Positions 4,116-19,615 of a DNA stretch of 42,988 bases are shown piece after piece. The translations under genes were made by a program, and so were the position numbers. This stretch comes from a virus, in the IMG/VR virus record IMGVR_UViG_3300045988_130630. One strand, 5' to 3'. The notes under the pieces were generated by a model. It saw only the letters and a list, made by a program, of their open reading frames with translations, had not been told where the DNA came from and searched no databases. Within the stretch, counting starts at the first letter, position 1. Every line of letters begins with the position of its first letter.

Positions 4116-4454
4116 TTAAGAAATTGTAGAGATTAAAAAGATCTCAGGGTCATCGAGCGTCTCGATGGGGATTTTGAGAAACTTTGCGTAAGCTTCCTTC
4201 ATTGTGTCATTAAGGCGATAATACTCTTGTGGAGCGATGAAGATATTGTCAATGCGGACGGCCTCTCCCGAGTCAGAAGCACCGAGAAGATAACCAAAGA
4301 TAGGGTTCTCATCGTCATCATAGTAGCTCGCGCGATGCCAATATCCTGCTTCGGTAAGCTGTTCGATAGCTTCAGCCATATTATCATAGTTCTCAAGAAG
4401 GTTCTTGGGGACTTTATAACCGCACACGAGTTTAGAACCAAAATCAACAGACAT
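4116..4454 (-). CDS. hypothetical protein (112 aa)
   Basis: Supplied ORF track. Confidence 0.45.
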   Translation of the reverse strand: MSVDFGSKLVCGYKVPKNLLENYDNMAEAIEQLTEAGYWHRASYYDDDENPIFGYLLGASDSGEAVRIDNIFIAPQEYYRLNDTMKEAYAKFLKIPIETLDDPEIFLISTIS

Positions 4455-4455
4455 A

Positions 4456-4653
4456 TTACTTGTCCTCCTTAAGAATAGAATTGATAAAAGTGCTATATTC
4501 AGTGGGTCTTACACAATACGCGGTTTTTGTTCCATTATCCCAAAAAACATATATAAGCTTGTTAGATTCAGAATTTTTTACGGCAATTGAATAAATATGA
4601 GTCGTATTAATGATATGAGTTTGACCTAAATAATCAATAAGCTTAGCAAGCAT
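4456..4653 (-). CDS. hypothetical protein (65 aa)
   Basis: Supplied ORF track; AAAGGTG ribosome-binding site upstream. Confidence 0.4.
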   Translation of the reverse strand: MLAKLIDYLGQTHIINTTHIYSIAVKNSESNKLIYVFWDNGTKTAYCVRPTEYSTFINSILKEDK

Positions 4654-5172: not shown

Positions 5173-5246
5173 AAAAATATACTTTGGGTAAAAATTGTTA
5201 AAATTACTATTTTAGATTTGAAGTATATATGAAGGAGGTGGAAGCA

Positions 5247-5879
5247 TTGTCAGTAGAGTAGAAAAGATTTCCTGCTAATGTAGATATGAATATATTAACT
5301 TTTTTAAATAATAAGAAAATAAATGGTGAATTATATGCTTATTTATAGAGTTTATCTGAATATAATGTTATTAGTAAATAGCATAATATTTATAAAACTT
5401 ATGTATTGAAAAAATGGTTGCCAATTCAAAGTAAGATGTGTCAAATGCTTGGTATTAAAAGCCCTAAAACATTAAAAACGCATTTGAATTATTTAATTGA
5501 ACAAGGGTATATTATAGAAGAAGAAGATAGATATATATTACCTGAAATGGAAAATATATATTTTCTTATTCCACTACATACATTAAGATATATAAATGAT
5601 AACTGTAAAGAACATATTATAAAGATATATATTTATTTAGGATAGCGTTATAAATATGCATTAAATAATGGAAGTTAGTATGAATTTACATTAGAGGAAA
5701 TTGGAGAACATAGTGGTATAAAAGTAAAGAATAACAGCAGGGGCTATGAGATTATTAATAATGCTTTAACATTTTTATAGAATTCAGAATTAATTGATTA
5801 TGTTAGTTTTTTTGATGGGCAGATGCAGAAAAAGAAATTAACAAAATTTAGTTTTGAATATAAAAATTAGAATAGGTAA
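5247..5879 (+). CDS. TAG-recoded winged-helix DNA-binding protein, putative replication initiator or origin-binding protein (about 210 aa)
   Basis: TTG start 5 nt after GAAGGAGGTGGA. The frame is open to a TAA at 5877 only if 7 TAGs are read through. The translation contains ..KSPKTLKTHLNYLIEQGYIIEEEDRYILPE.. (a winged helix-turn-helix). The gene is flanked on both sides by the 23-bp iterons. Confidence 0.5.
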
Positions 5880-6730: not shown

Positions 6731-6919
6731 TAAGGGTATTATTGACTTCGGGCATAAATGCCCTCGTTGATAAGGGCTCTACTTGATTTATAATAAATAA
6801 TATATTATAATATATATAATAAAAGAAAAAATGAAATGAAAAATAATACCCCGTAGGCAGGGAGGATCGTAGATCCGAGTCGCCTGCCCGCGTGGCGAAC
6901 GCAAAATGAAAGTAAGGAT

Positions 6920-7415: not shown

Positions 7416-7596
7416 GATGGTGAGTTTATATTGGCTTATCCGCTTCTGGATAGTAATTAAATTGATGGGTAAAGAATTGGAAGACGTGGAATAAAATTAT
7501 AAAGATTGGTGGAAACGTTGAAAATTGCGTTTGTGTGGTGCCGATCGGTTTAACTAACTACCAATCACATTTTCCCCGTCTCCGTTCTCCGAACCT

Positions 7597-7699: not shown

Positions 7700-8077
7700 T
7701 CACTTGTTAATGAAAGTATTCAAAAAATCGGCAATTACATCATCGTCAGTTCTCTTAACCTTCTTAACCTTTACCTTCTCACTCTTGGGAAAAAGCACAT
7801 CAAGAAGATCGTTAACCCCGGTCATAAGACCATAAACCTCAGCAAAGATATTCTCCACATCGGACGCGGTCAACTCAGAATCCTTGTGGCCATTAAGAGC
7901 GGCATACTCGTTAATCCGATCGGCGATTTCCTGCGCGAGCGCGGTCTTCCGATCGGCCTGCTTGGACTCCTTCTCCACCTGCGCGACCGCAGCGTTCAGA
8001 GACTTAGCCATTTCGTCCGCAATAGCCTGAGCGTCCTCACCATTCTTCAGACGAGCAATAATATCATTCATATCCAT
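7700..8077 (-). CDS. hypothetical protein (125 aa)
   Basis: Supplied ORF track. Its promoter is at 8109-8137. Confidence 0.55.
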   Translation of the reverse strand: MDMNDIIARLKNGEDAQAIADEMAKSLNAAVAQVEKESKQADRKTALAQEIADRINEYAALNGHKDSELTASDVENIFAEVYGLMTGVNDLLDVLFPKSEKVKVKKVKRTDDDVIADFLNTFINK

Positions 8078-8108
8078 ATGAATACCTCTTTTCTTATTTT
8101 CTATATAT

Positions 8109-8137
8109 ATTATATACTATTTTTTTAAAATTGTCAA
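8109..8137 (-). promoter_or_regulatory. sigma70-type promoter (TTGACA, 17-bp spacer, TATAAT) for gene 7700-8077
   Basis: Reverse-complement of 8109-8137 reads TTGACAattttaaaaaaatagtaTATAAT. Confidence 0.55.
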
Positions 8138-8239
8138 GATTTTTTTAAATGAAAACATACGCGTGAAACAATGTAAGGGCGAAGCAATTTTTAATTAATC
8201 ATAAAGGCATATGATCCTACGCGGGCTTAAAAAAGTCTT

Positions 8240-8590
8240 TTTTTATCATTATAACATATTTTTTATAAAAAGTCAATTTTCGGGATTTTTTTGGGCCATA
8301 TGGAGAGGTGCTAGAAGTACGAAAAATTTTGCATATGGGTATACCGATCGGGAAATCGGCCCGCGACGTTCCACCGCGGGCCGGCCAAATAGACTGAGCA
8401 TTCCGGGATTTTAGTCTGAGTCTATTTTAAACACTTTTTTCGCACAAAATTTGCTAAACCTATAATTATTCCGAAATTCCGCCCGGAGCGTCAGTGATCG
8501 GGCGGTCCATTATACCACATTTTCCGATCGGTGTCAATAGGTAAAATGCACAAAAAAAATCAGCAGGTTTTAGTCAACCTGCTGATTGAA
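8240..8590. ncRNA. Non-coding structured region with two GC palindromes (8358-8382, 8479-8505), an imperfect hairpin (8391-8430), a minus-strand promoter (8509-8538) and a terminator (8559-8586); one copy of the convergent-promoter module family
   Basis: No ORF with a ribosome-binding site is present. The palindromes GGCCCGCG..CGCGGGCC and CCGCCCG..CGGGCGG were read directly. Confidence 0.35.
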
Positions 8591-8593
8591 TAT

Positions 8594-9010
8594 TTATGCA
8601 AGAAATGCGTTTACAATTTCATCGAACACCGTGGGGTTAATGTCCACGTTAAAAAAGCGGTCGTTCTTGCGGAACGCTTTGGGGTAGCGTCTAATCAGTT
8701 CCGCACGCAACGCGCTTTCCGCACCCTCGGCGGGATAGTCCCCGCAAGAACGGATTCGATGAATTTCAACGCGCGTGATAGCATACTTTTTTGCATACTC
8801 GCCGATTTCATCACGCAAACGCCCTACAACATCTTTTGCGGAAGTGCCTACTTTGTTAAATTCAAGTTCGTCGTTGTGGTAAAACTTGAAAAAGTAAACC
8901 GCTTGTTCATTTTTCAGATTCTCGCCACAATCAGGCATGAATTCCATAGAAACGGGCGGTCTACCGTCCTTAAATCGGCGTAGCTTAATAGTAATTTCTT
9001 CCATTGGCAC
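8594..9010 (-). CDS. T5orf172 / GIY-YIG-like domain protein (about 137 aa)
   Basis: Contains AVYFFKFYHNDELEFNKVGTSAKDVVGRLRDE, matching the [YF]-h-x-K-h-G-x-T...RL..L core of the T5orf172 family. AGAGAGGA ribosome-binding site. Start is either the ATG at 9004 or the GTG at 9010. Confidence 0.45.
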   Translation of the reverse strand: MPMEEITIKLRRFKDGRPPVSMEFMPDCGENLKNEQAVYFFKFYHNDELEFNKVGTSAKDVVGRLRDEIGEYAKKYAITRVEIHRIRSCGDYPAEGAESALRAELIRRYPKAFRKNDRFFNVDINPTVFDEIVNAFLA

Positions 9011-9025
9011 AAAATCCTCTCTGTT

Positions 9026-9054
9026 GATTGAGGTTTACCATCGTTCTCTCAACC
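9026..9054 (-). promoter_or_regulatory. Conserved 29-bp 5'-leader element GGTTGAGAGAACGATGGTAAACCTCAATC (hairpin GGUUGAG/CUCAAUC), copy 1; copy 2 at 12272-12300
   Basis: The identical 29-mer lies between the promoter and the ribosome-binding site of two different genes (8594-9010 and 11470-12246). Confidence 0.5.
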
Positions 9055-9084
9055 ATTATTTTTTGCACTTTTTGACTTGTTTTG

Positions 9085-9120
9085 GGGTGAAAAACCGCAT
9101 TTTTCAGCGGTTTTTCACCC
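9085..9120. terminator. Terminator with a perfect 14-bp stem (GGGTGAAAAACCGC / GCGGTTTTTCACCC)
   Basis: Read directly. Confidence 0.6.
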
Positions 9121-9127
9121 TTTTTCG

Positions 9128-9535
9128 TCAGTTTTTGGGCTTTCGCTTCTGAATCAGGGTCAATTCGTAGTCATTTTCGCCCACATGGAACGCAATCATG
9201 CGCTCCACATTCGTAATTTCCACGTTTTCGCACGCATTTTCGCTGTTTTCACGCAAAAAAGTAGCGAGTTCCGCGATAATCGAGCGTTTTGTGGGGTTTT
9301 CCTTGCGCTGTCGCTTTTCAAACTTATAAGCGGTCGGCGCTTTGCGTGTTCCGGTCTTAGAATACTTGTTAGCTTCTTTGAGCTTTTCTGCGGACAGGTC
9401 AAAGTCCTTGGCAATTCCATGGTCAATGTCATCATCGTCCATGAGAATTTCTTTTGCTTCCTCGGCAGTACAATCCAACTTTTTCATCAGATTGTCAATC
9501 TTTGCCTGAAAGTCCTTTTCACTCATTTTAGGCAT
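9128..9535 (-). CDS. hypothetical protein (135 aa)
   Basis: Supplied ORF track; AAGGGGG ribosome-binding site; promoter at 9560-9589 (TTGACA, 18-bp spacer, TATAAT). Confidence 0.55.
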   Translation of the reverse strand: MPKMSEKDFQAKIDNLMKKLDCTAEEAKEILMDDDDIDHGIAKDFDLSAEKLKEANKYSKTGTRKAPTAYKFEKRQRKENPTKRSIIAELATFLRENSENACENVEITNVERMIAFHVGENDYELTLIQKRKPKN

Positions 9536-9599
9536 TTTCTTTGCCCCCTTTCAAGTATGATTATAACACCGCCGTTAGCAAATGTCAAGAGAAATTTTT

Positions 9600-9630
9600 G
9601 GGAGCGCCTGATTTTTTTCAGGCGCTCCCC
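9600..9630. terminator. Terminator hairpin GGGAGCGCCTGA / TCAGGCGCTCCC
   Basis: Read directly. Confidence 0.6.
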
Positions 9631-9635
9631 CTGAA

Positions 9636-10013
9636 TCAGTGGGCGAGACGGAAGTAGGACTTGCGCTTGTCCACAATCTTCTCGACGCCGTTCGCTTCAA
9701 TCATCTGACGCAGAAGAGCGGAAACGCGCTGATTGGTGAGGTCGCCCAGACCGTCCACGTTCTTGATGAGTTCGGTCACGGTATACAGCTTGTCAGGATT
9801 CGCGGACAGCTCGGCAAAGATAATGTCCTTGTAGCCGTCGTTGGCAATCTGATTCGCGGTCGGCTTCTTGTCACCGGCGTTCTTGCGGGACAGCAGGTCG
9901 ATTTCGTGGTTGATAAACTCAACCATAGCAGGGTCAGCCTGAACCTCGGACAGTTTGAGCAGAGCCTCGAAACGGTCGCGCTTGGTGAGCTTCTTAACAG
10001 TAGAAGTAGACAT
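9636..10013 (-). CDS. hypothetical protein (125 aa), paralog of 12389-12769
   Basis: About 70% identical to the product of 12389-12769. Both share the identical ribosome-binding-site context AAAGGAATTGATACTATGG and the same promoter type. Confidence 0.6.
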   Translation of the reverse strand: MSTSTVKKLTKRDRFEALLKLSEVQADPAMVEFINHEIDLLSRKNAGDKKPTANQIANDGYKDIIFAELSANPDKLYTVTELIKNVDGLGDLTNQRVSALLRQMIEANGVEKIVDKRKSYFRLAH

Positions 10014-10019
10014 AGTATC

Positions 10020-10700
10020 AATTCCTTTCTTTGGCGGTAGGTCGCTACCCTTTTGATATTATTGAGTATACCACACTTTGGAGTGCTTGTCAAGAGGTTT
10101 CGCAAACTTTTCACACGAATTACTACCCCGACCTGACGGATAATTTATTGTTTGTTGATTCAATCTATTTGTCAGCGGAAAACCGCGTCAAGGATAGTTG
10201 GTTCAATCAAACTCACTTTCGCGTTCAACGTTTGGCTTTACAACGTGGTGTATTCTGTTTACTTCCTATACTTTCTCAAGGTCGCGCGCCCTCGGATTTC
10301 TTGGGCTACTCCCTCTCGACATTTTCTATTGTAGCACACTCGCTGGGATTTGTCAAGAGGTTTTCAAGAAAAAACTCATGAATTTTTTCTTTTATCCCGT
10401 GCGTTCCGCTCCGAAGAGACCTTAACGTAATAGGCGAACGGTCTATTGCTACTTCCAACCGTAGCCCCACACCGACCTGTGGCTCAGGGGTTCCCCTCTT
10501 GACATTATTTATTGTAGCACTTTTCGCACTACTTGTCAAGAGGGAATTTCAAATTTCTTTGAAAACGGGTCAGTTACCGAGTTATCACACCCATCAGCGA
10601 AGCCGTTCGGCAATTCACTGTTCCCTCTTGACATTATCCATTATAGCAGATTGCCCATAGATTACAATTGACAAAATAACCAAATTACGGGAAAAAATTT
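10020..10700 (-). promoter_or_regulatory. Tandem array of four sigma70-type promoters (-35 hexamers at about 10085, 10360, 10525 and 10660 in plus-strand coordinates) with no convincing downstream ORF; three place ATGTC(A/G)AGAGGG 2-5 nt after the -10
   Basis: Reverse-complement reads CCTCTTGACA, 17 bp, TACAAT, then aaATAATGTCAAGAGGG. Repeated three times; the first copy drives gene 9636-10013. Confidence 0.45.
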
Positions 10701-10725
10701 TCTTCATTTTTGTGCAACTTTTCTC

Positions 10726-10754
10726 TTGACAAAATTGGCGGGGCGTGGTATAAT
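10726..10754 (+). promoter_or_regulatory. Plus-strand sigma70-type promoter (TTGACA, 17-bp spacer, TGGTATAAT) of module B, firing into the GC palindrome at 10764-10788
   Basis: Read directly. Confidence 0.5.
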
Positions 10755-10792
10755 GGTGAATTCGGCCCGCTTTGGGCGTTGGCGGGCCGGCC

Positions 10793-10821
10793 ATTTTATC
10801 ACAAAAATCCGCGTTTGTCAA
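10793..10821 (-). promoter_or_regulatory. Minus-strand promoter (TTGACA, 17-bp spacer, TAAAAT) of module B, convergent with the plus-strand promoter
   Basis: Reverse-complement reads TTGACAaacgcggatttttgtgaTAAAAT. Confidence 0.45.
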
Positions 10822-10835
10822 TAGACAAAATAGAC

Positions 10836-10870
10836 AAAAAAAACTACCCATTTTTGGGTAGTTTTTTTAT
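10836..10870. terminator. Bidirectional terminator (CTACCCA/TGGGTAG hairpin with A8 and T7 flanks)
   Basis: Read directly. Confidence 0.6.
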
Positions 10871-11116
10871 TCAATCCAAAAGGTTAATCTCGCCGGGAAT
10901 TTTGAAAGAATCAGCGTCCAGCGTGGAATTGTAGTCCTCGGTAAAGAGTTCAATCATTCCACATTCCATGATGTAATTCTGCACCGCCCGCTGAACATTT
11001 CTCCAAAGGTCAGTCTTTCGGCTTTCCTCACGGGCTTTTCTGGCTTCCTGTATCTGGATAATGAGTTCGTCCAGTTCCTCGTCGGTCATGTAATTAAAAT
11101 TCAAATCCATTTTCAA
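10871..11116 (-). CDS. hypothetical protein (81 aa)
   Basis: Supplied ORF track; ATGA overlap with the upstream gene. Confidence 0.5.
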   Translation of the reverse strand: MKMDLNFNYMTDEELDELIIQIQEARKAREESRKTDLWRNVQRAVQNYIMECGMIELFTEDYNSTLDADSFKIPGEINLLD

Positions 11117-11391
11117 AACTCCCTTTTAATTGCTTTTTCCCACACTTCACGACCGAATTTTCTCTCGCGGTCTAACTTCTTGCCAATGTCTTTTGCGGTC
11201 AGCAGGTCAAGCTCGTCCGCAATCTCGGCTTCAAAGTTTACCCAAAAGTCGTAGGTCTTGATGATGAAAACTTCATCGGCTTCAAAGACGCCGCCGCACT
11301 CGGCGCAGATAATATAGTCATGGTCGATTAAAATGCCCATGTGAGGGTCATTGTCATCAGGGACTACAAAAAGAACTTGTTTAGCGTTCAT
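11113..11391 (-). CDS. hypothetical protein (about 92 aa; start MNAKQVLF, with CxxC)
   Basis: AAAGAGG ribosome-binding site before the ATG at 11391; consensus promoter at 11421-11449. Confidence 0.5.
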   Translation of the reverse strand: MNAKQVLFVVPDDNDPHMGILIDHDYIICAECGGVFEADEVFIIKTYDFWVNFEAEIADELDLLTAKDIGKKLDRERKFGREVWEKAIKREF

Positions 11392-11420
11392 GTGAAACAC
11401 CTCTTTCATTTGATATATTG

Positions 11421-11449
11421 ATTATACCATAGGGAATAGGACTTGTCAA
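11421..11449 (-). promoter_or_regulatory. Consensus sigma70-type promoter with extended -10 (TTGACA, 17-bp spacer, TGGTATAAT)
   Basis: Reverse-complement reads cTTGACAagtcctattccctaTGgTATAAT. Confidence 0.6.
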
Positions 11450-11469
11450 GCCCTATTCCCTATTTTTTT

Positions 11470-12246
11470 TTAGCTCATGTTTACAACGGGATTTTCCTTA
11501 ATGTTTCGCATGAGCGCGCGCTGAAACTCGGTCGGCTTGGGGCGTTCCACCGTGGGAGCTTTGAAAAGGGATTTTTCCATGGGTTTGTGCTGTCGGACGC
11601 AATAGCGCAGAATCTCAACTTCAATGAGAACATCTTCAAGTCCCGTATGCGATTCATCAAAACTGTCCTCGCCGCTGATAAAGCGGTAGAGAATTTCTGC
11701 GGTAAAGCGGAGCTGTCCGTTCTTGGTCTTGTAGCCGTTCTTTTCGCAATAGTCGCGGTAAGTGGGCATCTGACCGATAACCTGTCGCGCCATTTTCAAG
11801 GTGTCCCAGATTTCAAGGTCATAGGGGAAGAAATAACGATACTTGCTTTTCGTGTCCCATCTTTGCGCATTGTTGCAGGCGTTCAAGTCGAACCGCATAT
11901 TATGAGCGCAGACAAAAGAGCAGTTATAACGCTCGACACATTCGCAGAACGCCTGACGAATTTCGTAAAGGTCAGCCATAATGCGCGAACCATTCTTAAT
12001 GTCCTCAATGTAGCGAGGAATCTTGTCGGCGTAGTATGCGGACTGCATGAGGTCGCGCTCGTAGCAGAAAATGTCGCGATTCACAAAGGAATAAGTTTCA
12101 TAAACATTTCCCTTGGAATCAATGACCGCCCAGCCGAAGTCGTAGGGAAGTACATTTGACATATCCAGCTTATCGCCGTCCTGAATGGTGTTTGCGGTTT
12201 CCGTGTCCAGCATAATGCCGTAGTTTTTGCGCCTATCAATACCCAT
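11470..12246 (-). CDS. DEDDh-family (DnaQ-like) 3'-5' exonuclease (258 aa)
   Basis: Exo I motif MLDTETAN, Exo II CAHNMRFDLN and Exo III HTGLEDV. AGGAGACG ribosome-binding site. Promoter TTGACA, 17-bp spacer, TGcTATACT at about 12305-12335. Confidence 0.6.
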   Translation of the reverse strand: MGIDRRKNYGIMLDTETANTIQDGDKLDMSNVLPYDFGWAVIDSKGNVYETYSFVNRDIFCYERDLMQSAYYADKIPRYIEDIKNGSRIMADLYEIRQAFCECVERYNCSFVCAHNMRFDLNACNNAQRWDTKSKYRYFFPYDLEIWDTLKMARQVIGQMPTYRDYCEKNGYKTKNGQLRFTAEILYRFISGEDSFDESHTGLEDVLIEVEILRYCVRQHKPMEKSLFKAPTVERPKPTEFQRALMRNIKENPVVNMS

Positions 12247-12350
12247 CTTATCGTCTCCTATTGGAAAAGTAGATTGAGGTTTACCATCGTTCTCTCAACC
12301 TCTGATAATAGTATAGCACTTTGCTATTGGTTTGTCAACAGTTTTTTTGT

Positions 12351-12380
12351 AGGGCAGGGGATTTTTTTTATCCCCTGCCC
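12351..12380. terminator. Terminator (GGGCAGGGGA / TCCCCTGCCC hairpin around a T8 run)
   Basis: Read directly. Confidence 0.6.
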
Positions 12381-12388
12381 TTTTCCCT

Positions 12389-12769
12389 TTACGCGAGGGA
12401 GAAGTAGGACTTGCGCTTGTCAACCGTCTTGACAACGGTGTTGGCTTCAATCATCTGACGCAGAAGAGCGGAAACGCGCTGATTGGTATACTCCGCGAGT
12501 TCGGGAACGGTCTTGATGAGGTCGGTCACGGTATACAGCTTGTCAGGGTTCGCGGTCATCTCGTCCAGAATGACCTGCTTCACAGCGTCATTCTCCATCT
12601 GCTTGGCCGTGGGCTTCTTGTCGCCCGCGTTCTTCTTGGCGAGCAGTTCAATCTCATGCTCGATGAACGCCACCATATCAGGATTTGCCTGAACCTCATT
12701 CATTTTGAGCAGAGCCTCGAAACGGTCGCGCTTGGTGAGCTTCTTAGTAGTAGAAGTAGAAGTAGCCAT
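12389..12769 (-). CDS. hypothetical protein (126 aa), paralog of 9636-10013
   Basis: See the paralog at 9636-10013. Promoter at about 12825-12855 (TTGACA, 17-bp spacer, TATAAT). Confidence 0.6.
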   Translation of the reverse strand: MATSTSTTKKLTKRDRFEALLKMNEVQANPDMVAFIEHEIELLAKKNAGDKKPTAKQMENDAVKQVILDEMTANPDKLYTVTDLIKTVPELAEYTNQRVSALLRQMIEANTVVKTVDKRKSYFSLA

Positions 12770-13274
12770 AGTATCAATTCCTTTCTGGTTTTTAAGACTG
12801 TCCTTGTCTTTGATGTAGTTATTATATCATAGGCGGAGCAGGTTGTCAATAGTTTTTACAAATTTTTTTTTAGGGGCGGTCGCGAGGTTTATTACTATAC
12901 ATCTTGTTTATGCCTACCTTTATCTATACTCTTAAACCAATTCAATTTACTAAGCCATTAGTTTTTAAGGCGGTGGGCGAGCATTAGAAGTCATCTTGTT
13001 TTTACCTCTCTCATTTGATGTATTCATTATACCATAGGTCGAGCGGTTTGTCAAGGGGTTTTTCAAACTTTTTTTGAAAGTTTGTTCGGCACGCCACGCT
13101 TGGAACATTCCTTGTGTCGGCTTCTGGTATGATGGTCAAAGGAACTGCCTTTCCGTAGGTCTTACTCTTTCCTCCTGACATTATGTAGTATAGCAGATTG
13201 GAACTGATTTGTCTATTAACGAAATAACCAAATTACGGGAAAAAATAAAATTGAAATTTGTGCGAAATTTCTCT

Positions 13275-13302
13275 TGACAAAAATGCTGGCAGGGTGTATA
13301 AT
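13275..13302 (+). promoter_or_regulatory. Plus-strand promoter (TTGACA, 16-bp spacer, TATAAT) of module C, firing into the palindrome CCGGCCG..CGGCCGG (13311-13337)
   Basis: Read directly. Confidence 0.5.
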
Positions 13303-13340
13303 GGTAAATTCCGGCCGTAGCGCGCGGAAACGGCCGGCCA

Positions 13341-13369
13341 ATTATATCACATTTAAGGAACTTTGTCAA
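13341..13369 (-). promoter_or_regulatory. Minus-strand promoter (TTGACA, 17-bp spacer, TATAAT) of module C
   Basis: Reverse-complement reads ctaTTGACAaagttccttaaatgtgaTATAAT. Confidence 0.5.
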
Positions 13370-13382
13370 TAGTCAAAGTAAA

Positions 13383-13420
13383 CAAAAAAAATCTCCCCGT
13401 TTTGGGGAGATTTTCTTTTA
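13383..13420. terminator. Bidirectional terminator (ATCTCCCCG/CGGGGAGAT hairpin with A8 and T-rich flanks)
   Basis: Read directly. Confidence 0.6.
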
Positions 13421-13675
13421 GCCAATTACATTGACTTCGGTTTTGACAGGCGTCACCATCTTGTCGCGCGAGAACTCGCGAACCTGACCCGTTTCAAGAT
13501 TCACCGCGTAGCAATACTGCGAACCTCTCGACCGGACAAACGGCGTGTTGTTGTTGCTGTCAATTTTGAGATACATTCCCATACCGCTACCGTTGGAGCG
13601 CAGAGTGGTGAACGTGCCACCGCTGAGAATGTTAATAATTTGGAGCTGACCCTTAGTGCCAAAATTTACTTTCAT
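13418..13675 (-). CDS. hypothetical protein (85 aa)
   Basis: Supplied ORF track; GGAGAAA ribosome-binding site. Confidence 0.5.
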   Translation of the reverse strand: MKVNFGTKGQLQIINILSGGTFTTLRSNGSGMGMYLKIDSNNNTPFVRSRGSQYCYAVNLETGQVREFSRDKMVTPVKTEVNVIG

Positions 13676-13849
13676 TTTTATTTCTCCTCTCTTAAAGCAG
13701 ATGGGTATTAACCCATTCTGCGGTCACAAGTCCGATTTCCTTAGAGACAACCGTTTCATAGCGGTAATTACCGCCATCAGTTCGTCCGGTCACTTTGGCG
13801 AGAACGCCAAGTGTCAACCAAAAATAAGGCATCATTTTTTTACCCCCTA

Positions 13850-14050
13850 TTACTTACTGCTCGGAAAGATAGCGCCCAGAAGTGCGAGGATAATCCAAAC
13901 CACGAGCGCCAGCTTCCACGAGAACACGATAACAAAAGTGCCGATTGCGGTGATACCGAGGGCGGGAAGAAGCCAGCAGAGAAGCCAGACAAGGCCCGAA
14001 GTAGCAAGGAACGAAAACGCGAGAGACAGCAGAATCAAAAGAACAAACAT
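13850..14050 (-). CDS. small membrane protein with two transmembrane helices (about 66 aa)
   Basis: Start taken at the third Met (MFVLLILLS), which has an AAAGGGGAAAA ribosome-binding site. Promoter at about 14075-14110. Confidence 0.5.
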   Translation of the reverse strand: MFVLLILLSLAFSFLATSGLVWLLCWLLPALGITAIGTFVIVFSWKLALVVWIILALLGAIFPSSK

Positions 14051-14104
14051 TTTATTTTCCCCTTTCATTTGATACATTTATTATACCATTGGAGTAGGGC
14101 TTTG

Positions 14105-14605
14105 TCAAGCCCTTTTCTCCAAAAGTTCCGAAAGTTTTTCGATAATGTTTACTGCGGTCGGGTCAATGGTTTCACCCAAGTGCCAACCATTCCGAACCTT
14201 TTCATTATCGTCAACCAAGATGGACACGTCATAGCGGTCGCGCACGCTGTCGGCCTTAGTCGCGCCATACTGGACGCCGTGAAAGTGGTCATAGTGGAAG
14301 CCCTGTTCTTCAAGCCACGCGCGCTTTGCTTCACGCACGAGGTTTTTGTATTCCTCGCTCGAATCTTTGGAAAGCCAAGTGATGATGTTGATTTCCCAGC
14401 CCTCGGCGCGGAGAAGTTCGCAAACCTCATTCAGTTCAGCCATATTGCACATGGGAACAGCAGTTCGATAGGGCTTAGGATTTTCCGAACGGAGAAGTGC
14501 AAGCCAATCCTTGACGCCGTAGAGGTCAGCAATAGTGCCGTCCATGTCAAAGTTGATGGAACGTCGAGTGGCCACAACGTGGGACTTGATGTAAGTGATT
14601 TTCAT
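14105..14605 (-). CDS. HAD-superfamily 5'(3')-deoxyribonucleotidase-like phosphatase (166 aa)
   Basis: N-terminal FDMDGTIAD (the DxDGT nucleophile motif) and later DD motifs, as in NT5C-type deoxynucleotidases. Confidence 0.55.
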   Translation of the reverse strand: MKITYIKSHVVATRRSINFDMDGTIADLYGVKDWLALLRSENPKPYRTAVPMCNMAELNEVCELLRAEGWEINIITWLSKDSSEEYKNLVREAKRAWLEEQGFHYDHFHGVQYGATKADSVRDRYDVSILVDDNEKVRNGWHLGETIDPTAVNIIEKLSELLEKRA

Positions 14606-14673
14606 AGGTATTACCCCTTTCCTTTACTGTATCTGTATTATACCATACATCTGCGCGGTTGTCAAGAGAAATT

Positions 14674-14964
14674 TTAGCAATTTCCCGCTTTATTTATCCA
14701 TTCTTTCCATTTATCTTTGGCAAACTTTTTATATTCTTCTTGCCAAATACCACCTGCAATGGCTTCTTTTACTGCGTCATCAATAGAAAGATATTGGTTG
14801 GGAAAAACAAAGTCATCACAAAAGAACCGAGTTCGACCAAAGAATTTGCGGTTAGGGCGGATAACTTCATCAACAGAGATATAGATTAGCCCATATGATT
14901 CATCGTTGTATACCTTAGCCTCAAAGGTTCTTCCCTCATATTCATAAGTTTTCGGCTTACTCAT
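14674..14964 (-). CDS. hypothetical protein (96 aa)
   Basis: Supplied ORF track; promoter at about 14990-15025. Confidence 0.5.
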   Translation of the reverse strand: MSKPKTYEYEGRTFEAKVYNDESYGLIYISVDEVIRPNRKFFGRTRFFCDDFVFPNQYLSIDDAVKEAIAGGIWQEEYKKFAKDKWKEWINKAGNC

Positions 14965-15051
14965 AGCGTTTGTCCTCCTTTACTATGCTTGTATTATACC
15001 ACTATTGGATTTGCTTGTCAAGTGTTTTTTTCAAAATTTTCGCGGTCTTTC

Positions 15052-15237
15052 TCAATACACGAAAGATAAGAAATTAAGCAAAATCAGCACAGGAATAGCG
15101 TAGACGATATTGAAAGAGTCCCACCCGAGACTTTCACAGGAATAGGCAAAAATAAAGCCAAAAACGAGGCCGAAAATGCCGATTAAAATAATCATTCTAA
15201 ATCCTCCATATGACCGTAGTGTTCGTTGATATGCCAT
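15052..15237 (-). CDS. small membrane protein (61 aa)
   Basis: Supplied ORF track; hydrophobic sequence. Confidence 0.45.
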   Translation of the reverse strand: MAYQRTLRSYGGFRMIILIGIFGLVFGFIFAYSCESLGWDSFNIVYAIPVLILLNFLSFVY

Positions 15238-15455
15238 TCAAGATAGGTATTAGTCGCAATCTGAATTTCTCTATCTAACCAGTCGTAAAAGTCCTCGGGG
15301 TCGCGGGCCATGCGTTCGTCAATAATATCAGCAAGAGAAACGCGATGGGCGATAAACTCTGAAATATCAAGAGAATCCATAGAAGAAAGAAGTTCTTCCA
15401 CACACTCTTCGCGAGTGGAGAACTTTTCAGTAGAAAAATCGTGAGTGTAATACAT
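15192..15455 (-). CDS. hypothetical acidic protein (about 88 aa, start MYYTHDF)
   Basis: The track ORF 15192-15641 was truncated to the Met that has a ribosome-binding site (AAAGGGGATACAAACAATG). Its upstream part runs across repeat module D. Confidence 0.45.
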   Translation of the reverse strand: MYYTHDFSTEKFSTREECVEELLSSMDSLDISEFIAHRVSLADIIDERMARDPEDFYDWLDREIQIATNTYLEWHINEHYGHMEDLE

Positions 15456-15574
15456 TGTTTGTATCCCCTTTCCTTTACGGTAATTATAGTATAGCAGATT
15501 ATTACATTCTTGTCTATTGGTAAAATAACCAAATTCGGGAAAATAATTAGTTAGACTTTTGGTTAAATTTCCTA

Positions 15575-15603
15575 TTGACAAATTGCTGGGATGGTGGTAT
15601 AAT
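15575..15603 (+). promoter_or_regulatory. Plus-strand promoter (TTGACA, 17-bp spacer, TGGTATAAT) of module D, firing into the palindrome at 15611-15637
   Basis: Read directly. Confidence 0.5.
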
Positions 15604-15639
15604 TGGAATTCCGGCCGTGGCATGCGCAAACGGCCGGCC

Positions 15640-15669
15640 ATTTTATCACACTATTGGGTTTTTGTCAAT
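15640..15669 (-). promoter_or_regulatory. Minus-strand promoter (TTGACA / TAAAAT) of module D
   Basis: Read directly. Confidence 0.45.
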
Positions 15670-15686
15670 AGGCAAAATAAATAAAA

Positions 15687-15720
15687 TTTTGAGACGAGAT
15701 TTGGTTATCTCGTCTCAAAA
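15687..15720. terminator. Bidirectional terminator (GAGACGAGAT/ATCTCGTCTC)
   Basis: Read directly. Confidence 0.6.
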
Positions 15721-15725
15721 TATTT

Positions 15726-16178
15726 TTAACGCTCGGACGCAATGCTGAGGTAGCGGGCAATCATGTTCATTTCGCAACTCATGTCATGCCAATCGCAGAC
15801 CACATAGCCCACAAGGTCGCCATCTGCGTGAATCGGATAAACACCATAAGTGTTATTGAAAGCGAACGGCTTATTTTCAAATTCCCACTGGGTCGGGACG
15901 TAAGCTGGAAAGTTTTCCATGCCCCGCAGTTTTACGGTGGTGTCATAGATTGCGATGGGGCGCAAGCCGGACTTTGACGCCATCGTGATAGCGGTTCGCA
16001 TACAATCTTCGGTCAAAGAGCCAAGCACCGAATACCTCTTGAAGCAAACGCAGTCGTTATCTTCAATGAAGATTTCGAGCGGGTCGCCCTCGCGAATCTT
16101 CAAAGTCCGACGAATTTCTTTCGGAACGACCACACGTCCAAGGTCATCAATTCTGCGAATAATACCAGTAGCTTTCAT
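15726..16178 (-). CDS. AbrB/SpoVT(MazE)-family DNA-binding domain protein (150 aa)
   Basis: N-terminal MKATGIIRRIDDLGRVVVPKEIRRTLKIREGDPLEIF matches the swapped-hairpin AbrB N-domain consensus (K.TGIVRK.D.LGRVVIP.E.R..L.I...D.LEI). Confidence 0.65.
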   Translation of the reverse strand: MKATGIIRRIDDLGRVVVPKEIRRTLKIREGDPLEIFIEDNDCVCFKRYSVLGSLTEDCMRTAITMASKSGLRPIAIYDTTVKLRGMENFPAYVPTQWEFENKPFAFNNTYGVYPIHADGDLVGYVVCDWHDMSCEMNMIARYLSIASER

Positions 16179-16242
16179 TTTAATTTTCCCCTTTCACTTG
16201 ATACGTTAAGTATAGCAGAACAAAAGGCTTTTGTCAAGTCCT

Positions 16243-16716
16243 TTATTCAAGATTTTTGCTTTCTGCGACAAAATATTTTGCTTCGTATTGATTGGCAATA
16301 GCCTTGACTTTTGCGCTTTCCTTTTGGGTCGCGCAGTAAAAATTGAAAAGCGTATGTTTATCGCTCAATTCAATGTAAGAGTGCGGAACATCATGCAAAT
16401 CAAAATCAATGGTGTTAGTGTATTTTGTCGGGACAGTCAGTTCGACTTTCCATAATCGGTCTTTGCGGGCTTTCTCTTCAATCCACTTGACAAAGTAAAC
16501 GCCCACGAAATTACAAACGGCAGTAATAGCCATTTTCAACCAGATAGGCATACCGTCCGCGGAAGTCAGCACAATCACATAGGAATAAAAACCATAAGTG
16601 ATAGCGTTGATAAGAGATGCGCTGACTTTTCCACCATTGACAGTTAAAATGCTTTTGATGGTTGACAGAATCACATTCACCGCCGTGCAAAGCGCGAATA
16701 GAAGAATTGTATTCAT
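16243..16716 (-). CDS. membrane protein (157 aa; three N-terminal transmembrane helices plus a cytoplasmic domain)
   Basis: Supplied ORF track. Confidence 0.5.
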   Translation of the reverse strand: MNTILLFALCTAVNVILSTIKSILTVNGGKVSASLINAITYGFYSYVIVLTSADGMPIWLKMAITAVCNFVGVYFVKWIEEKARKDRLWKVELTVPTKYTNTIDFDLHDVPHSYIELSDKHTLFNFYCATQKESAKVKAIANQYEAKYFVAESKNLE

Positions 16717-16961
16717 TCTATCACCTCAATGTCGCAATAAATACAGTCGGTAATATCGACGTATTCCTCAAAACTCATTCTTTTATCATCGCGGTGGGTA
16801 AAGTCGATGTAGGCATCTCTACCGCGAAGATTATTTTCTTCATTGTATGCGTGAGTGGCATTATCAAAAGCCTTAATAGCGTCAGCTTCATTATAAACCA
16901 CCACTTCTTTGACTTCCGGAGCATCATACCAAATAGTATATTTCTTTTTCATTATTATCAC
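16713..16961 (-). CDS. hypothetical protein (82 aa)
   Basis: Supplied ORF track; ATGA overlap. Confidence 0.5.
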   Translation of the reverse strand: MIIMKKKYTIWYDAPEVKEVVVYNEADAIKAFDNATHAYNEENNLRGRDAYIDFTHRDDKRMSFEEYVDITDCIYCDIEVIE

Positions 16962-17176
16962 CCTTTCCTTTTTCTATTATAATAATATCATAATATAATA
17001 GAAATGTCAATAGAGAGTTTTTAATTTACTCTTTTAATTTTTCTAATAGGTCATCAGCACAGTCATAGCTGATGCCTCTGCGGTCGCATTGGTCAGACAA
17101 AGGGCAACAAGCGCAGTCATTAAAGGTTTCCGTCCAAGCGCGCAACCAGTCAATCAAGCGCAAGACGTTAACTTCC

Positions 17177-17521
17177 TCATACATTGTCGTCATTCTCCTT
17201 TACTCGGACAAAAAAGACCTTGTTATAAATTTTCTCTGCTTTAAGGTCAATCCAAAAATATACATTACCGCATACTCGATAGATTTTGCAAGTCTCTCCA
17301 CTAACCTTTTTGACTTCTTCAAACTTCTCTTGCGTAGTGGGGTGAAAAATCGTCAGTTTGAGAAATATGCAATAGAAAGATAAAGGAACGAAGCCGATAA
17401 TCAGAGCAATCCATGCAAGAACGTCAGTCAAGGTGTTTTCCCATTCACACCACTCATCGGTAATTGTAGCGAACGCGATACCCACGCAAAACGCGAGAAT
17501 CAACCAATACCATGCCACCAT
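17177..17521 (-). CDS. membrane protein (114 aa, two transmembrane helices)
   Basis: Supplied ORF track; AAGGGGG ribosome-binding site; promoter at about 17545-17590. Confidence 0.5.
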   Translation of the reverse strand: MVAWYWLILAFCVGIAFATITDEWCEWENTLTDVLAWIALIIGFVPLSFYCIFLKLTIFHPTTQEKFEEVKKVSGETCKIYRVCGNVYFWIDLKAEKIYNKVFFVRVKENDDNV

Positions 17522-17671
17522 TATTTTATTCCCCCTTTATTTGTTGTATACATCTTACCACATTATAGGATTTTTGTCTATTGGCATTTTACACAAAAAT
17601 TCGTGCGAAAATTTGTTGAACTTACCTCTTGACAAAAAACTCGGCGCGCCACAATCGTCCGCGCGCCGACG

Positions 17672-17700
17672 ATTTTATCACATTCAAGGAACTTTGTCAA
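17672..17700 (-). promoter_or_regulatory. Minus-strand promoter of module E (TTGACA, 17-bp spacer, TAAAAT); the palindrome CGGCGCGCC..GGCGCGCCG lies at 17642-17668
   Basis: Read directly. In this copy the plus-strand -35 element (17629-17634) has no -10. Confidence 0.45.
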
Positions 17701-17712
17701 TAGTGAAAGTAA

Positions 17713-17748
17713 ACAAAAAAAATCACCCAATTTGGGTGATTTTTCATT
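17713..17748. terminator. Bidirectional terminator (ATCACCCAA/TTGGGTGAT)
   Basis: Read directly. Confidence 0.6.
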
Positions 17749-17924
17749 TAGTTTCCTACGGCTTCGAGGTCGACGAGAATGGGAACGAGCTTGTCTTCAA
17801 GAAGCGCGACACGCTCAATCATTTCATTTGCTGCTGTTCCGCCCGACGGGTATCTCTTCTGAATGCCGTATCGAGCCATTCTGCACACCGTTTCAACAAC
17901 CTCGCTCAGTTTCTCATTCTTCAT
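17748..17924 (-). CDS. hypothetical protein (about 58 aa, start MKNEKL)
   Basis: GGAGATAAG ribosome-binding site. Confidence 0.4.
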   Translation of the reverse strand: MKNEKLSEVVETVCRMARYGIQKRYPSGGTAANEMIERVALLEDKLVPILVDLEAVGN

Positions 17925-18035
17925 TTTTCTTATCTCCATTCAATTTATTTTTTGGAAAGGGTGGCGGTTGTTTCAGGCACAACCGCCAAAGCCATAGGAA
18001 AGGGGGAGAAAAACACGAACAAAAGTTCGGTTTTG

Positions 18036-18284
18036 TCAAGGGATAATCAGTTCCGCGTCATAGACAGGCCGAACCATGCAGGGCGCGCCAAAACAGTCGA
18101 GATTGTAAGTGTCTAAATTGAGAGCGTTCCATTCTTCTGCACCGGTATCTTCATCAACCACAGTCGCGATTTTGATGTAATAGACGTTTCCAGAAGCAGG
18201 GTCTTGAAAAATCATACCCTCGGGGAGGTCTTCAAATGCAACCATTTTGTTGCTATGCTTAACAGTAATTTTCATTTCGTTCAC
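18036..18284 (-). CDS. hypothetical protein (82 aa)
   Basis: Supplied ORF track. Confidence 0.5.
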   Translation of the reverse strand: MNEMKITVKHSNKMVAFEDLPEGMIFQDPASGNVYYIKIATVVDEDTGAEEWNALNLDTYNLDCFGAPCMVRPVYDAELIIP

Positions 18285-18634
18285 CCTTTATAATAGTATT
18301 TGTAAGCCCATTCAATGATTTCATGGCTTGTGGTAGTCCATTCCTCTTTGGGACTATCGAACTTTTCCGCATACTTTTTGATGTAGTTATTATACTCCAT
18401 GCGCGCGGTGTCGTATGCTCCAATAGCCACAATTAAAGCGTGTTTCGCTTCTTCGGCGTCGGAGGCTGCTTTCTTGCGGTCGGGGCAGTCAGGATAAAGG
18501 TTAATCACCCCTACGCGCGTAATGGCTTGCCTTGTCTTTTCATAAAGGCGGTCGCGCTCTTCCCAAACCTTATAAATCAAATCGTCTGCGCGATTTTCAT
18601 AAGGGTTGAAAGGCTTCTTTTTCTTACCGAACAT
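18281..18634 (-). CDS. hypothetical protein (about 117 aa, start MFGKKKK)
   Basis: Track ORF truncated to the Met that has a ribosome-binding site. Confidence 0.45.
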   Translation of the reverse strand: MFGKKKKPFNPYENRADDLIYKVWEERDRLYEKTRQAITRVGVINLYPDCPDRKKAASDAEEAKHALIVAIGAYDTARMEYNNYIKKYAEKFDSPKEEWTTTSHEIIEWAYKYYYKG

Positions 18635-18964
18635 TTTTCTTTTTCTCCTTTTCCTGTTTATTCCACATTCTATCAAAGAACGCATTTGCGAGAACATGCT
18701 TGTAAAGGTTATCAGGCATGGGGCGCTCACCGTGCTTGTTTCTCCAAATCGCGGTGATTTTATCAATATCCGCGATATAGGCGGTAATGAGTGTGCCATC
18801 GGAAGCGCTACGAACGAGAAGAACGCCGGTTGTAGTGATAGTGTAGAGAATATCGTTCTCAACGCTGTCGATATATGGTTCGCCGATTCCTACATTATCG
18901 TAGATGAAGAGCAGGCGGTCAATACGGTCTTGCGTGGCGTGTTTTGACATTTTGATAAGCATTT
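18624..18964 (-). CDS. hypothetical protein (about 113 aa, start MLIKMSKH)
   Basis: AAAGAGG ribosome-binding site; promoter at about 18985-19030. Confidence 0.45.
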
Positions 18965-19034
18965 GTTTTACCTCTTTCTTTTTCTCTTGGATTGATTGTA
19001 TTATACCATATGGGGAGGGGCTTGTCAAGCCCCT

Positions 19035-19184
19035 TTAATATAATTGTTCCCCATCGTGGTAGCGCTCATATTCCGCTTCAAGGAAGTCGAGAATAGTTTC
19101 AAAGTCGTCTGCATCTGCGGGGTCTGCAAAGACCTTTTCAAGGACTTCGTTAGTGTGCCAATTGTAAACTCGAATAATATCCAT
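19035..19184 (-). CDS. small acidic protein (49 aa) MDIIRVYNWHTNEVLEKVFADPADADDFETILDFLEAEYERYHDGEQLY
   Basis: Not in the ORF track because it is shorter than 60 aa. GAAAGAGG ribosome-binding site; consensus promoter at 19215-19243. Confidence 0.5.
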   Translation of the reverse strand: MDIIRVYNWHTNEVLEKVFADPADADDFETILDFLEAEYERYHDGEQLY

Positions 19185-19214
19185 TTTACTTACCTCTTTC
19201 TTGATTGTATATGT

Positions 19215-19243
19215 ATTATATCATGCGGAAGGGCTTTTGTCAA
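19215..19243 (-). promoter_or_regulatory. Consensus sigma70-type promoter (TTGACA, 17-bp spacer, TATAAT)
   Basis: Reverse-complement read directly. Confidence 0.6.
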
Positions 19244-19257
19244 GCCCTTTTTATCAG

Positions 19258-19461
19258 AAATGATAATTTCTGATGATGGCGTCGAACTTGGGAGCATATA
19301 CGGTTTCCCACTGTTCTTCAAGAGTCTGGTCATTCGTGCGATATAATTCCCACGAGACTGCACCATAAGCGTTATGCTTGAAAAACTCGGCATCGCAGGG
19401 CATCTGCTCGGCATAGAGAAGCTGGGTCTTGATAAAAGAGTGAATGTTGTAGTTAGTCATT
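19258..19461 (-). CDS. hypothetical protein (about 68 aa, start MTNYNIHSF)
   Basis: Track ORF truncated. Promoter TAGACA, 17-bp spacer, TATATT at about 19480-19530. Confidence 0.45.
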
Positions 19462-19586
19462 TTATTTACCTCATCTTTCTGTTCCCTTGGAACAATTATA
19501 ATATAACACACCCTTAGAGATTTGTCTATTGACGGATCGCACAAAATTGGGAAAAATAATTTGTGCAAATTTTCGCAACTTTTTGC

Positions 19587-19615
19587 TTGATAAATTGCTG
19601 ACCCTGTGATATAAT
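19587..19615 (+). promoter_or_regulatory. Plus-strand promoter (TTGATA, 17-bp spacer, TATAAT) of module F, firing into the palindrome CCGGGCGCG..CGCGCCCGG (19623-19649)
   Basis: Read directly. Confidence 0.5.

Follow-up and report, generated by a model that had tools for sequence, protein, structure and literature searches.

The viral contig IMGVR_UViG_3300045988_130630 (IMG/VR) raises the question of what a short GC-rich palindrome, repeated between small genes and bracketed by promoters, is doing there. We examined a stretch of 42,988 bp of it (here referred to as the window), in which the first-pass annotation had described an intergenic module at 10,700–10,870, with further copies, as a candidate small-RNA or antisense control unit. 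The eight copies listed there are all present in the sequence, and a ninth hairpin was detected besides (Table 1). The conserved core of the module is a folded nucleic acid, and not a generic promoter or terminator motif. We favour, tentatively, the reading that this hairpin caps early transcripts against 5′-end-dependent decay and that a convergent promoter, where there is one, both rivals the sense promoter and yields an antisense RNA of ~110 nt with a hairpin cap.

A covarying hairpin at the core of the module

The hairpin has a format of 27 nt in total, with an 8-bp stem (C-S-G-N-N-C-G-N), an 11-nt loop, the plus-strand 5′ flank AAAYT and a conserved A-R-T-T (ARUUU in RNA) beside its 3′ end. 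Stems and loops differ among the nine copies of this one genome, and the full hairpins fold with −14 to −22 kcal/mol. Thirteen GC hairpins of this type were found in the window (the nine of the modules and four ordinary terminators), all within 8.3–26 kb, whereas simulating the region with a first-order Markov model gives 0.1 by chance. Exactly the nine module hairpins, all in plus orientation and scoring 37–45 bits, were recovered in the window by a covariance model trained on the copies of relatives. Searching the whole window against Rfam 15 gave no match at gathering score, with only terminator-like chance matches below the threshold (at most 36 bits, against cut-offs of 48–114).

Relatives were collected by a protein-anchored search that yielded 23 loci, in which the neighbouring exonuclease shows 91–97% identity (about 15 loci), 63% (three loci) or less (the rest). 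The element occurs 118 times in these loci; counted together with the flanks, 71 of the sequences are distinct, and the covariation alignment was built from these. Over the 71 distinct variants the stem is 98% paired. Three to four pairs are invariant (C1, G3, C6 and G7), and positions 2, 4, 5 and 8 covary, with 33, 36, 29 and 20 double changes, respectively; there are 118 double-change cells versus 41 ± 4 in shuffles, sliding the register lowers the pairing to 26–44%, and G-U pairs are nearly absent. As the 118-instance set had been chosen for pairing, a second search fixed only the minus-strand promoter and the skeleton of the 5′ arm (85 stretches from ~55 viral contigs and ~17 samples), and the 3′ arm, left free, formed at least six of the eight Watson-Crick pairs in 106 of 109 matches, 67 of them perfect. 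The loop has 11 nt in essentially all of 85 variants, and its positions 4–5 and 8–9 (gene strand) are CG in 75–90% of them.

Even at one orthologous site in close relatives the stems differ yet remain self-complementary (e.g. CGGCCCGC, CGGACCGC and CCGGTCGC), part of the stem variation at orthologous sites being exchange between paralogous modules. The variable arm positions match each other, which a double-stranded operator would not need, and the sense RNA is the only transcript holding the element in every context; both points argue for a folded nucleic acid as the core. The palindrome is kept, with compensatory changes, in relatives that carry both, one or neither of the promoters. This bears out the earlier view of it as the conserved core, and the covarying stem removes the objection raised there in advance, that the copies might share nothing beyond generic promoter and terminator motifs.

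The suggestion, also made there, that the palindrome might be a protein-binding site fares worse as far as double-stranded DNA is concerned, since the variable stem positions covary almost perfectly and a protein site does not require matching arms. Considered jointly, DNA-level roles and selfish spread are improbable. They comprise an 8-N11-8 operator of a dimeric early regulator (e.g. the AbrB/MazE-fold protein at 15726–16178), a DNA hairpin, extruded or single-stranded, used in replication, recombination or supercoil management, and a palindrome resembling the repetitive extragenic palindromic (REP) type, spread with promoter cassettes. Four invariant positions per arm, dyad-symmetric motifs around the −35 boxes and downstream, and a near-absence of G-U pairs that fits constraint on both strands would suit such roles, as would the swapping of hairpins between paralogous sites in close relatives and the similarity breakpoints that fall, in some cases, at modules. 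However, a GC-rich 11-bp centre disfavours cruciform extrusion, so that RNA structure is favoured over a DNA cruciform. The element is also tied to promoters at single-nucleotide precision and always in the same orientation, and in a genome collection it is found only on contigs of gut metagenome-assembled genome (MAG) bins and is not scattered in host chromosomes.

Several known kinds of element were considered at the DNA level and set aside or found to fit poorly: a mimic of clustered regularly interspaced short palindromic repeats (the nine sequences are different), a rolling-circle nick site (variable, GC-rich loop), a cruciform (GC-rich centre of 11 bp), a double-stranded operator (positions 2, 4, 5 and 8 covary, with 98% pairing), and REP sequences or bacterial interspersed mosaic elements (BIMEs), as the element occurs only in the phage early region and no transposase was found among the proteins screened against Pfam and PHROGs.

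The covariance model had no match in the SPO1 terminal redundancy, the early region of Enterococcus phage EF1 or three distant loci (L020, L022 and L023), which makes the element clade-limited; two matches were found in L021 and a weak one in L019. It is present in more than 100 viral contigs, with human, yak and roe deer as the mammals seen. The MAG contigs carrying it are mostly binned as Clostridia, Eubacteriales or Lachnospiraceae and are probably mis-binned phage contigs.

Nested promoters and the predicted transcripts

Eight of the hairpins sit in a composite module with the plus-strand order P2 (a weak minus-strand promoter, TAGACA-17-TATACT), P+ (a convergent plus-strand promoter, four copies), hairpin, P−(hp) (a hairpin-adjacent minus-strand promoter, six copies) and terminator. 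The minus promoter faces the palindrome in six copies and is absent at 19623 and 25927, and the terminator is bidirectional in six modules, confined to the minus strand in that of 19623 and missing from copy 25927. Three copies were said in the first-pass annotation to have lost the plus −10 through a deletion of roughly 23 bp. Two of them (17641 and 22903) have kept an orphan TTGACA and no −10, and differ from the long form by an indel of ~24 nt (a deletion in one form or an insertion in the other); the third, 25927, has neither promoter.

The spacing is rigid, with the minus −10 at 2–4 nt from the stem every time (90 of 90) and the plus −10 at 7–8 nt from it in 59 of 60 cases, and it is equally so over 180 distinct contexts in relatives. 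Of these contexts, both promoters are present in ~60, only the close one in 58, only the far one in 16 and none in 46. Counted by copies, both occur in four of the nine in the window and in 49 of the relatives' 118 instances, with their −10 boxes 36–39 bp apart. Among the long-form modules (55 distinct ones), conservation is 100% for the plus −35 and −10 and 44–77% for the spacer; the plus promoter is better kept than the sense promoter and is found at the orthologous site also in the clade with 63% exonuclease identity. Because its hexamers are invariant while the spacer drifts, the plus-strand promoter, as had been proposed, looks functional.

Transcription normally starts ~7 nt past the −10, so the plus RNA would begin 0–2 nt before the stem and the sense RNA 2–4 nt inside it, with the invariant G3 as the putative natural sense start. 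A hairpin cut by a start at stem nucleotides 3–5 would still fold with −4 to −15 kcal/mol. The predicted plus RNAs (~110–118 nt, starting at 10759, 13307 and 15608) fold into the 5′ hairpin, the terminator and, between them, a small hairpin formed by the dyad at the sense −35 (z-scores −5.1 to −7.3). For the copy at 19620 no plus-strand terminator lies nearby. A plus RNA of 100–120 nt with a 5′ hairpin and a terminator had been predicted before and is upheld in form, although only four of the nine copies can make one, and for that reason antisense control is not the general function of the module. The sense leader carrying the hairpin at or near its 5′ end would be 150–190 nt long, without significant structure beyond the hairpin (z-scores −0.9 to −2.9). 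Sense and antisense would overlap by ~25 nt, i.e. by the hairpin only, the first Shine-Dalgarno (SD) sequence or ATG lying more than 110 nt further on; the plus RNA would thus not cover a coding 5′ end.

Could the plus-strand RNAs be the product, as a family of trans-acting small RNAs (sRNAs) with the hairpin as 5′ stabiliser and the copies lacking P+ as decayed or alternative forms? We regard this as quite unlikely. No part of the long-form modules is more conserved than the plus promoter, and the RNAs have an sRNA-like build (5′ hairpin, A/U-rich linker, terminator), but half of all modules keep the hairpin without a plus promoter, the linker, being antisense to a promoter, is constrained thereby, and the Rfam search gave no match and no target was identified. 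A small open reading frame (ORF) in the plus RNA was set aside as well, there being no SD or ATG.

According to the reading that we favour, each boundary would work as follows. In the direction of the genes, a strong bidirectional terminator would close one operon, and ~15 nt later the near-consensus promoter would start a transcript 2–4 nt inside the hairpin, giving a long-leader early mRNA with a flush 5′-terminal stem-loop. As RNase J1/Y and RppH attack Firmicutes RNA from the 5′ end, the hairpin could stabilise the downstream message as a cap or roadblock, and it could likewise shield read-through RNA that is cut upstream of it. In the four long-form copies, the convergent promoter, 7–8 nt from the other side of the palindrome, would start an RNA on the opposite strand, at the base of this hairpin; that RNA would cross the sense promoter and end at the bidirectional terminator as a hairpin-capped antisense RNA of ~110 nt. 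Open complexes protect to about +20, so that with −10 boxes 36–39 bp apart (predicted start sites ~22–26 nt apart) the two promoters would not be occupied together. Because two polymerases cannot hold both promoters at once, the antisense unit might throttle the sense promoter by occlusion or collision. Moreover, the 5′ hairpins of the antisense and sense RNAs are exact complements of each other, 11-nt loop included, and pairing of the two could strip the cap.

Stabilisation of mRNAs by a 5′ stem-loop or an SD-like sequence is known from B. subtilis and phage SP82, and RNase J1/Y act preferentially on 5′ ends that are accessible (PMC7509114). A 5′ stem-loop or a ribosome-bound SD are the two known shields from these enzymes in Firmicutes, SP82 early RNA being one of the classic cases (PMC7509114). 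In the modules, the promoter geometry places a stable hairpin a few nt from the predicted 5′ end. Several points weigh against our reading. About a quarter of the hairpin contexts in relatives (46 of 180) have no adjacent promoter, and a 5′ cap there would require processing of read-through RNA. A passive cap needs neither a constant 11-nt loop, semi-conserved CG dinucleotides and invariant stem pairs nor a fixed length of 27 nt and an ARTT flank. The sense start is predicted inside the stem and not before it, and the downstream genes have promoters of their own, which makes the need for a capped long-leader transcript questionable. The asymmetry between G-U and A-C (12 versus 6 in the stem and 12 versus 4 in a putative inner 2-bp helix, from non-independent rows) does not tell which strand is folded. 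Finally, while the sequences show the elements themselves, with their spacing, conservation and covarying stems, transcription itself is predicted, and the start sites, stabilisation, promoter competition and antisense pairing are all deduced from sequence.

Table 1. Features of the modules and of the late arm in the window, with the SPO1 sites used for comparison (P+, convergent plus-strand promoter; P−(hp), hairpin-adjacent minus-strand promoter; P2, weak minus-strand promoter)
Feature	Position	Strand	Remarks
Extra hairpin	8357–8383		No adjacent promoter here; orthologous site of relatives with a minus promoter; 36.8 bits
Module	8439–8587		Only a weak plus promoter 8439–8466 (TTCGCA-16-TATAAT); hairpin 8479–8505; P−(hp) 8537–8509; bidirectional terminator 8558–8587
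P2 of focal module	10640–10667	−	Second, weaker promoter, TTGTAA-16-TATAAT, TG-extended, downstream of the module
P+ of focal module	10726–10754	+	Convergent consensus TTGACA-17-TGGTATAAT (perfect TTGACA-17-TATAAT); −10 8 nt from hairpin; predicted RNA ~10759–10870
Focal hairpin	10763–10789		CGGCCCGC-TTTGGGCGTTG-GCGGGCCG; −17 to −20 kcal/mol; 41.6 bits
P−(hp) of focal module	10821–10793	−	Sigma-A-type, TTGACA-17-TGnTAAAAT; −10 3 nt from hairpin
T1, bidirectional intrinsic terminator	10837–10868		14-bp stem, T-run; predicted to end the upstream minus-strand operon (gene 10871–11116) and the plus RNA
Module	13187–13418		P2 13215–13187; P+ 13274–13302 (perfect TTGACA-17-TATAAT); hairpin 13311–13337; P−(hp) 13369–13341; terminator 13384–13418
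Module	15488–15721		P2 15516–15488; P+ 15575–15603 (perfect TTGACA-17-TATAAT); hairpin 15611–15637; P−(hp) 15668–15640; bidirectional terminator 15686–15721
Short-form module	17552–17745		P2 ~17580–17552; orphan TTGACA 17629–17634; hairpin 17641–17669, followed on the minus strand by AGTTTTTT; P−(hp) 17700–17672; terminator 17717–17745
Module without P−(hp)	19500–19719		P2 19528–19500; P+ 19587–19615 (TTGATA-17-TATAAT); hairpin 19623–19649; minus-only terminator 19695–19719
Short-form module	22814–23003		P2 22842–22814; orphan TTGACA ~22891–22896; hairpin 22903–22929; P−(hp) 22962–22934; terminator 22984–23003
Most upstream hairpin	25927–25953		No adjacent promoter; followed on the minus strand by AGTTTTAT; next minus promoter 25817–25789; 37.2 bits
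Long ORFs with TAG read as sense	27290–28348; 28380–29585; 29582–31324; 31677–33356; 33357–34946; others	+	27290–28348 sigma-like; 29582–31324 terminase-like; 31677–33356 portal-like
Promoter-hairpin sites of SPO1 (L024)	4397–4460; 5360–5420; 6740–6800; 7486–7540; 9529–9470		Coordinates of the SPO1 locus

Terminator and recognition-element alternatives

With 8 bp that are nearly all G-C, the stem is also of the kind found in intrinsic terminators, and a nested back-up terminator or insulator, bidirectional in form (A-rich, stem, T-rich) and sealing the operon boundary, is a serious alternative because of AGTTTTT-type runs on the gene side and ATTTTAT on the plus side, though on balance an unlikely one. 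The sense transcript, starting inside the 5′ arm, could not form the terminating hairpin, and the plus transcripts would hold it in full and stop early. In copies of the short form or without promoters, AGTTTTT(T)G, CATTTTTG or TTTTTG comes after the stem on the gene strand. At least five U within 8 nt after the stem are present at 17641, 22903 and 25927 (AGTTTTTT, AGTTTTTG and AGTTTTAT, respectively); copy 25927 otherwise lacks a terminator to close the operon upstream of it. Only two to three T stand there in the long forms (AATTCACC, AATTTACC), however, and these keep the hairpin equally. On the plus strand ATTTTAT lies 2–4 nt past the stem; it comes with the −10 TAAAAT, unusual in that it is frequent in hairpin-adjacent minus promoters and occurs nowhere else among 41 near-consensus promoters of the window, and the closeness of this −10 to the stem is what sets the start inside the arm. 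Yet a fixed 11-nt loop would be atypical and costly for a terminator, the ordinary terminators of this phage having loops of 3–8 nt, and a scan for intrinsic terminators flagged none of the nine hairpins. In most modules a strong terminator is, besides, already present ~60 nt upstream.

The fixed length, the loop CG, the invariant pairs and the ARTT flank exceed what a passive cap needs and keep alive another explanation, that a phage or host factor binds the hairpin of the sense leader, either as a nut- or RAT-like site or as a regulator of translation or decay. Such a factor, rather improbable in our judgement, would coordinate all early operons, e.g. in early shut-off or antitermination. 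The constant 27 nt, the shared orientation of all copies and the fixed distance at which the motifs TGTCAAKAG, TTGCACAAATTTT and TTTGTGCA follow the hairpin are in keeping with it. Unlike nutL/nutR, however, the nine copies vary in their loops and in half of the stem; each operon has its own promoters, which would make antitermination at every boundary needless, and screening the proteins against Pfam and PHROGs gave no candidate RNA-binding protein.

We give a similarly low chance to the strongest form of this idea, suggested by the fixed 11-nt loop, its CG dinucleotides and the ARUUU flank, in which a dedicated phage or host factor would act on the RNA at every early-operon boundary and the hairpin with its nested convergent promoters would be a switch, not described before, that times or shuts off early transcription. 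The element would then represent a new class of phage regulatory RNA in TAG-recoded gut phages, and not a passive stabiliser or terminator.

Two RNA-level candidates were rejected. A site of the lambda nut/boxB type does not fit, as stems and loops differ among the nine copies and only the loop CG and ARTT are shared. Neither does an RNase III site, the stem having 8–9 bp when ~20 bp or more are needed and the leader beyond it lacking significant structure.

As for the motifs beyond the hairpins, TTTGTGCA has seven matches where two are expected, and TTGCACAAATTTT and TTTGTGCA form a loose inverted repeat 3′ of the hairpins on the gene strand (e.g. 25895–25910, 22850–22880 and 10700–10720). 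The −35 boxes lie within small dyads (TTTGTC-AATA-GACAAA). Both the repeat and the dyads may serve for protein binding or form a second, weak hairpin in RNA; they show three compensatory changes in one paralogue (15637) and none in the others. Covariation of a further inverted repeat, which is A/U-rich (TTGCACAAATTT...AAATTTGTGCAA), is likewise seen in one paralogue and is not consistent elsewhere. A 'CCCGAA box' showed no enrichment over chance in the window.

The early region of the phage and comparable systems

The window is part of a large phage, and related IMG/VR contigs reach ~160–197 kb. No known phage was matched by megablast with either half of the window as query. At the protein level, its relatives are Enterococcus phages EF1/VRE9, gut phage Phass-1 and Lactococcus 949/WRP3-type phages, which places it by sequence in an Enterococcus EF1/Lactococcus 949-like group, and not in Herelleviridae. 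The stretch from 8 to 26 kb is a block of small minus-strand genes with a G+C content of 0.42–0.45 (8000–26000), which steps sharply to 0.26–0.33 in both flanking arms. Near-consensus promoters (TTGACA-17-TGnTATAAT) number 41 in the window, versus 0.75 expected, nearly all on the minus strand and in this block. Genes for a sigma-like protein, terminase, portal and virion proteins lie in the right arm. These dense promoters, together with the sigma-like and virion genes of the right arm, indicate that the block is an early region dependent on the host sigma-A. Its gene-proximal promoters have leaders of ~25 nt with a strong SD and no hairpin and would be in no need of a cap, the hairpin being found only on the long-leader promoter. 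The best explanation is that the module marks the boundaries between early operons driven by host sigma-A in a large uncultured gut phage of Firmicutes (Clostridia-type bins).

The control of early genes in uncultured Clostridia gut phages is essentially uncharted, and the module offers a concrete, cloneable unit: a terminator, a covarying hairpin with promoters nested around it to the nucleotide, and a predicted antisense RNA. If our reading is true, it would explain how an early region of ~18 kb is split into insulated units, and should the hairpin stabilise RNA, or the convergent promoter throttle its partner, such modules would be compact and portable parts for expression control in Firmicutes. 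For annotation, the module serves as a marker of early-operon boundaries in this phage group.

Each of its ingredients is known. 5′ stabilisers of Firmicutes (the Bacillus aprE and ermC leaders and SP82 early RNA) are also stable structures at the extreme 5′ end of a transcript, SP82 being a precedent for phage early mRNA, although its stabiliser proper is a polypurine sequence and not a hairpin. Here, by contrast, a fixed 27-nt hairpin with an 11-nt loop is repeated nine times, is common to two convergent promoters and lies ~110–190 nt ahead of the gene, from which a second promoter separates it. In the SPO1 terminal redundancy, early promoters have GC hairpins (−9 to −14 kcal/mol) 9–10 nt past the −10 and ahead of the SD, which parallel the idea of a 5′ hairpin but have no sequence or model similarity to the element. 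The host-takeover region of SPO1 and the early region of T7 resemble the block in their many small early genes, near-consensus host promoters, terminators and RNA structures between units; they differ in that the 8-bp stem is too short for RNase III, no homology is found, and the phage is EF1/949-like.

Facing promoters with a short terminated antisense RNA are known from P22 Pant-Psar with sar RNA, coliphage 186 pR-pL and lambda oop. The module shares with them strong facing promoters, overlapping transcripts as predicted from the sequence, and the possibility of interference and RNA pairing. The starts are, however, only ~22–26 nt apart, the ~25-nt overlap is one hairpin and covers neither a ribosome-binding site nor a coding start, the unit is repeated at several operon boundaries, and its bidirectional terminator also ends the upstream operon. 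In plasmids R1 (CopA/CopT), pIP501 (RNAIII) and pT181, sense and antisense stem-loops are complementary and their sizeable loops nucleate pairing. The exactly complementary stem-loops of the module could do the same, but they control no attenuator or ribosome-binding site and lack a YUNR loop motif, and the antisense promoter is missing from half of the copies. REP/BIME sequences are likewise short, GC-rich, imperfect palindromes found in many copies between transcription units; the element differs in having no GTAG-type head and no REP-associated tyrosine transposase, and in being confined to the early region in a fixed orientation and locked to promoters. The combination of one covarying hairpin with two nested promoters at about nine operon boundaries in a gut-phage clade was not found in Rfam or the literature searched.

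At 12715–13532 and 10990–11095, the EF1 genome (L110) has an 800-nt non-coding stretch with iterated TTGTGAA(A/T)T and AAAATAACA motifs, and antisense-oriented TTGACA-17-TAAAAT promoters with small GC hairpins 2 nt after. This architecture is loosely analogous to that of the module, with no sequence homology.

When TAG is read as sense, the fragmented late arm (27290–42988, plus strand) becomes a tight row of long ORFs, and other spots of apparent TAG recoding are found at 5202–5879 (plus strand) and 261–1208 (minus strand). The phage appears to use TAG stop-codon recoding in its late genes, the early minus-strand block reading normally. The sigma-like gene itself requires TAG read-through, and a tRNA scan of the window found no suppressor tRNA.

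One early protein of 150 aa (15726–16178, minus strand) has an N-terminal domain of the AbrB/MazE (SpoVT-AbrB) fold (Pfam PF04014, 2.7e-09; PHROG 'antitoxin') and is a candidate DNA-binding regulator of the early region. The block also holds two paralogous minus-strand genes (9636–10013 and 12389–12769), which encode proteins of 125 and 126 aa with no match in Pfam or PHROGs and share a 300-nt repeat of 74% identity. Promoter-only units opening with TATAAT/TACAAT-N5-ATGTCAAGAGGG precede each of these genes, and a strong GC terminator comes after it. There are four such promoter-driven units (10013–10667 and 13011–13215, minus strand), which would be either leaderless mini-ORFs starting MSRG/MSGG (34, 18, 18 and 56 aa) or non-coding RNAs of 130–180 nt with an SD-like 5′ stabiliser. 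An ORF listing over them gave, besides the 56-aa candidate, only out-of-frame unsupported ORFs, and they had no Rfam match.

Compared with 8–24 kb of the window, three relatives (L008, L010 and L014) are mosaic, with blocks of 70–94% nucleotide identity. In this non-rigorous comparison, several block ends or deletions fall at modules (e.g. 8387/8438, 15686/15720 and 19654/19805), and L008 lacks 16725–18562. The repeated modules may, on this evidence, be recombination joints.

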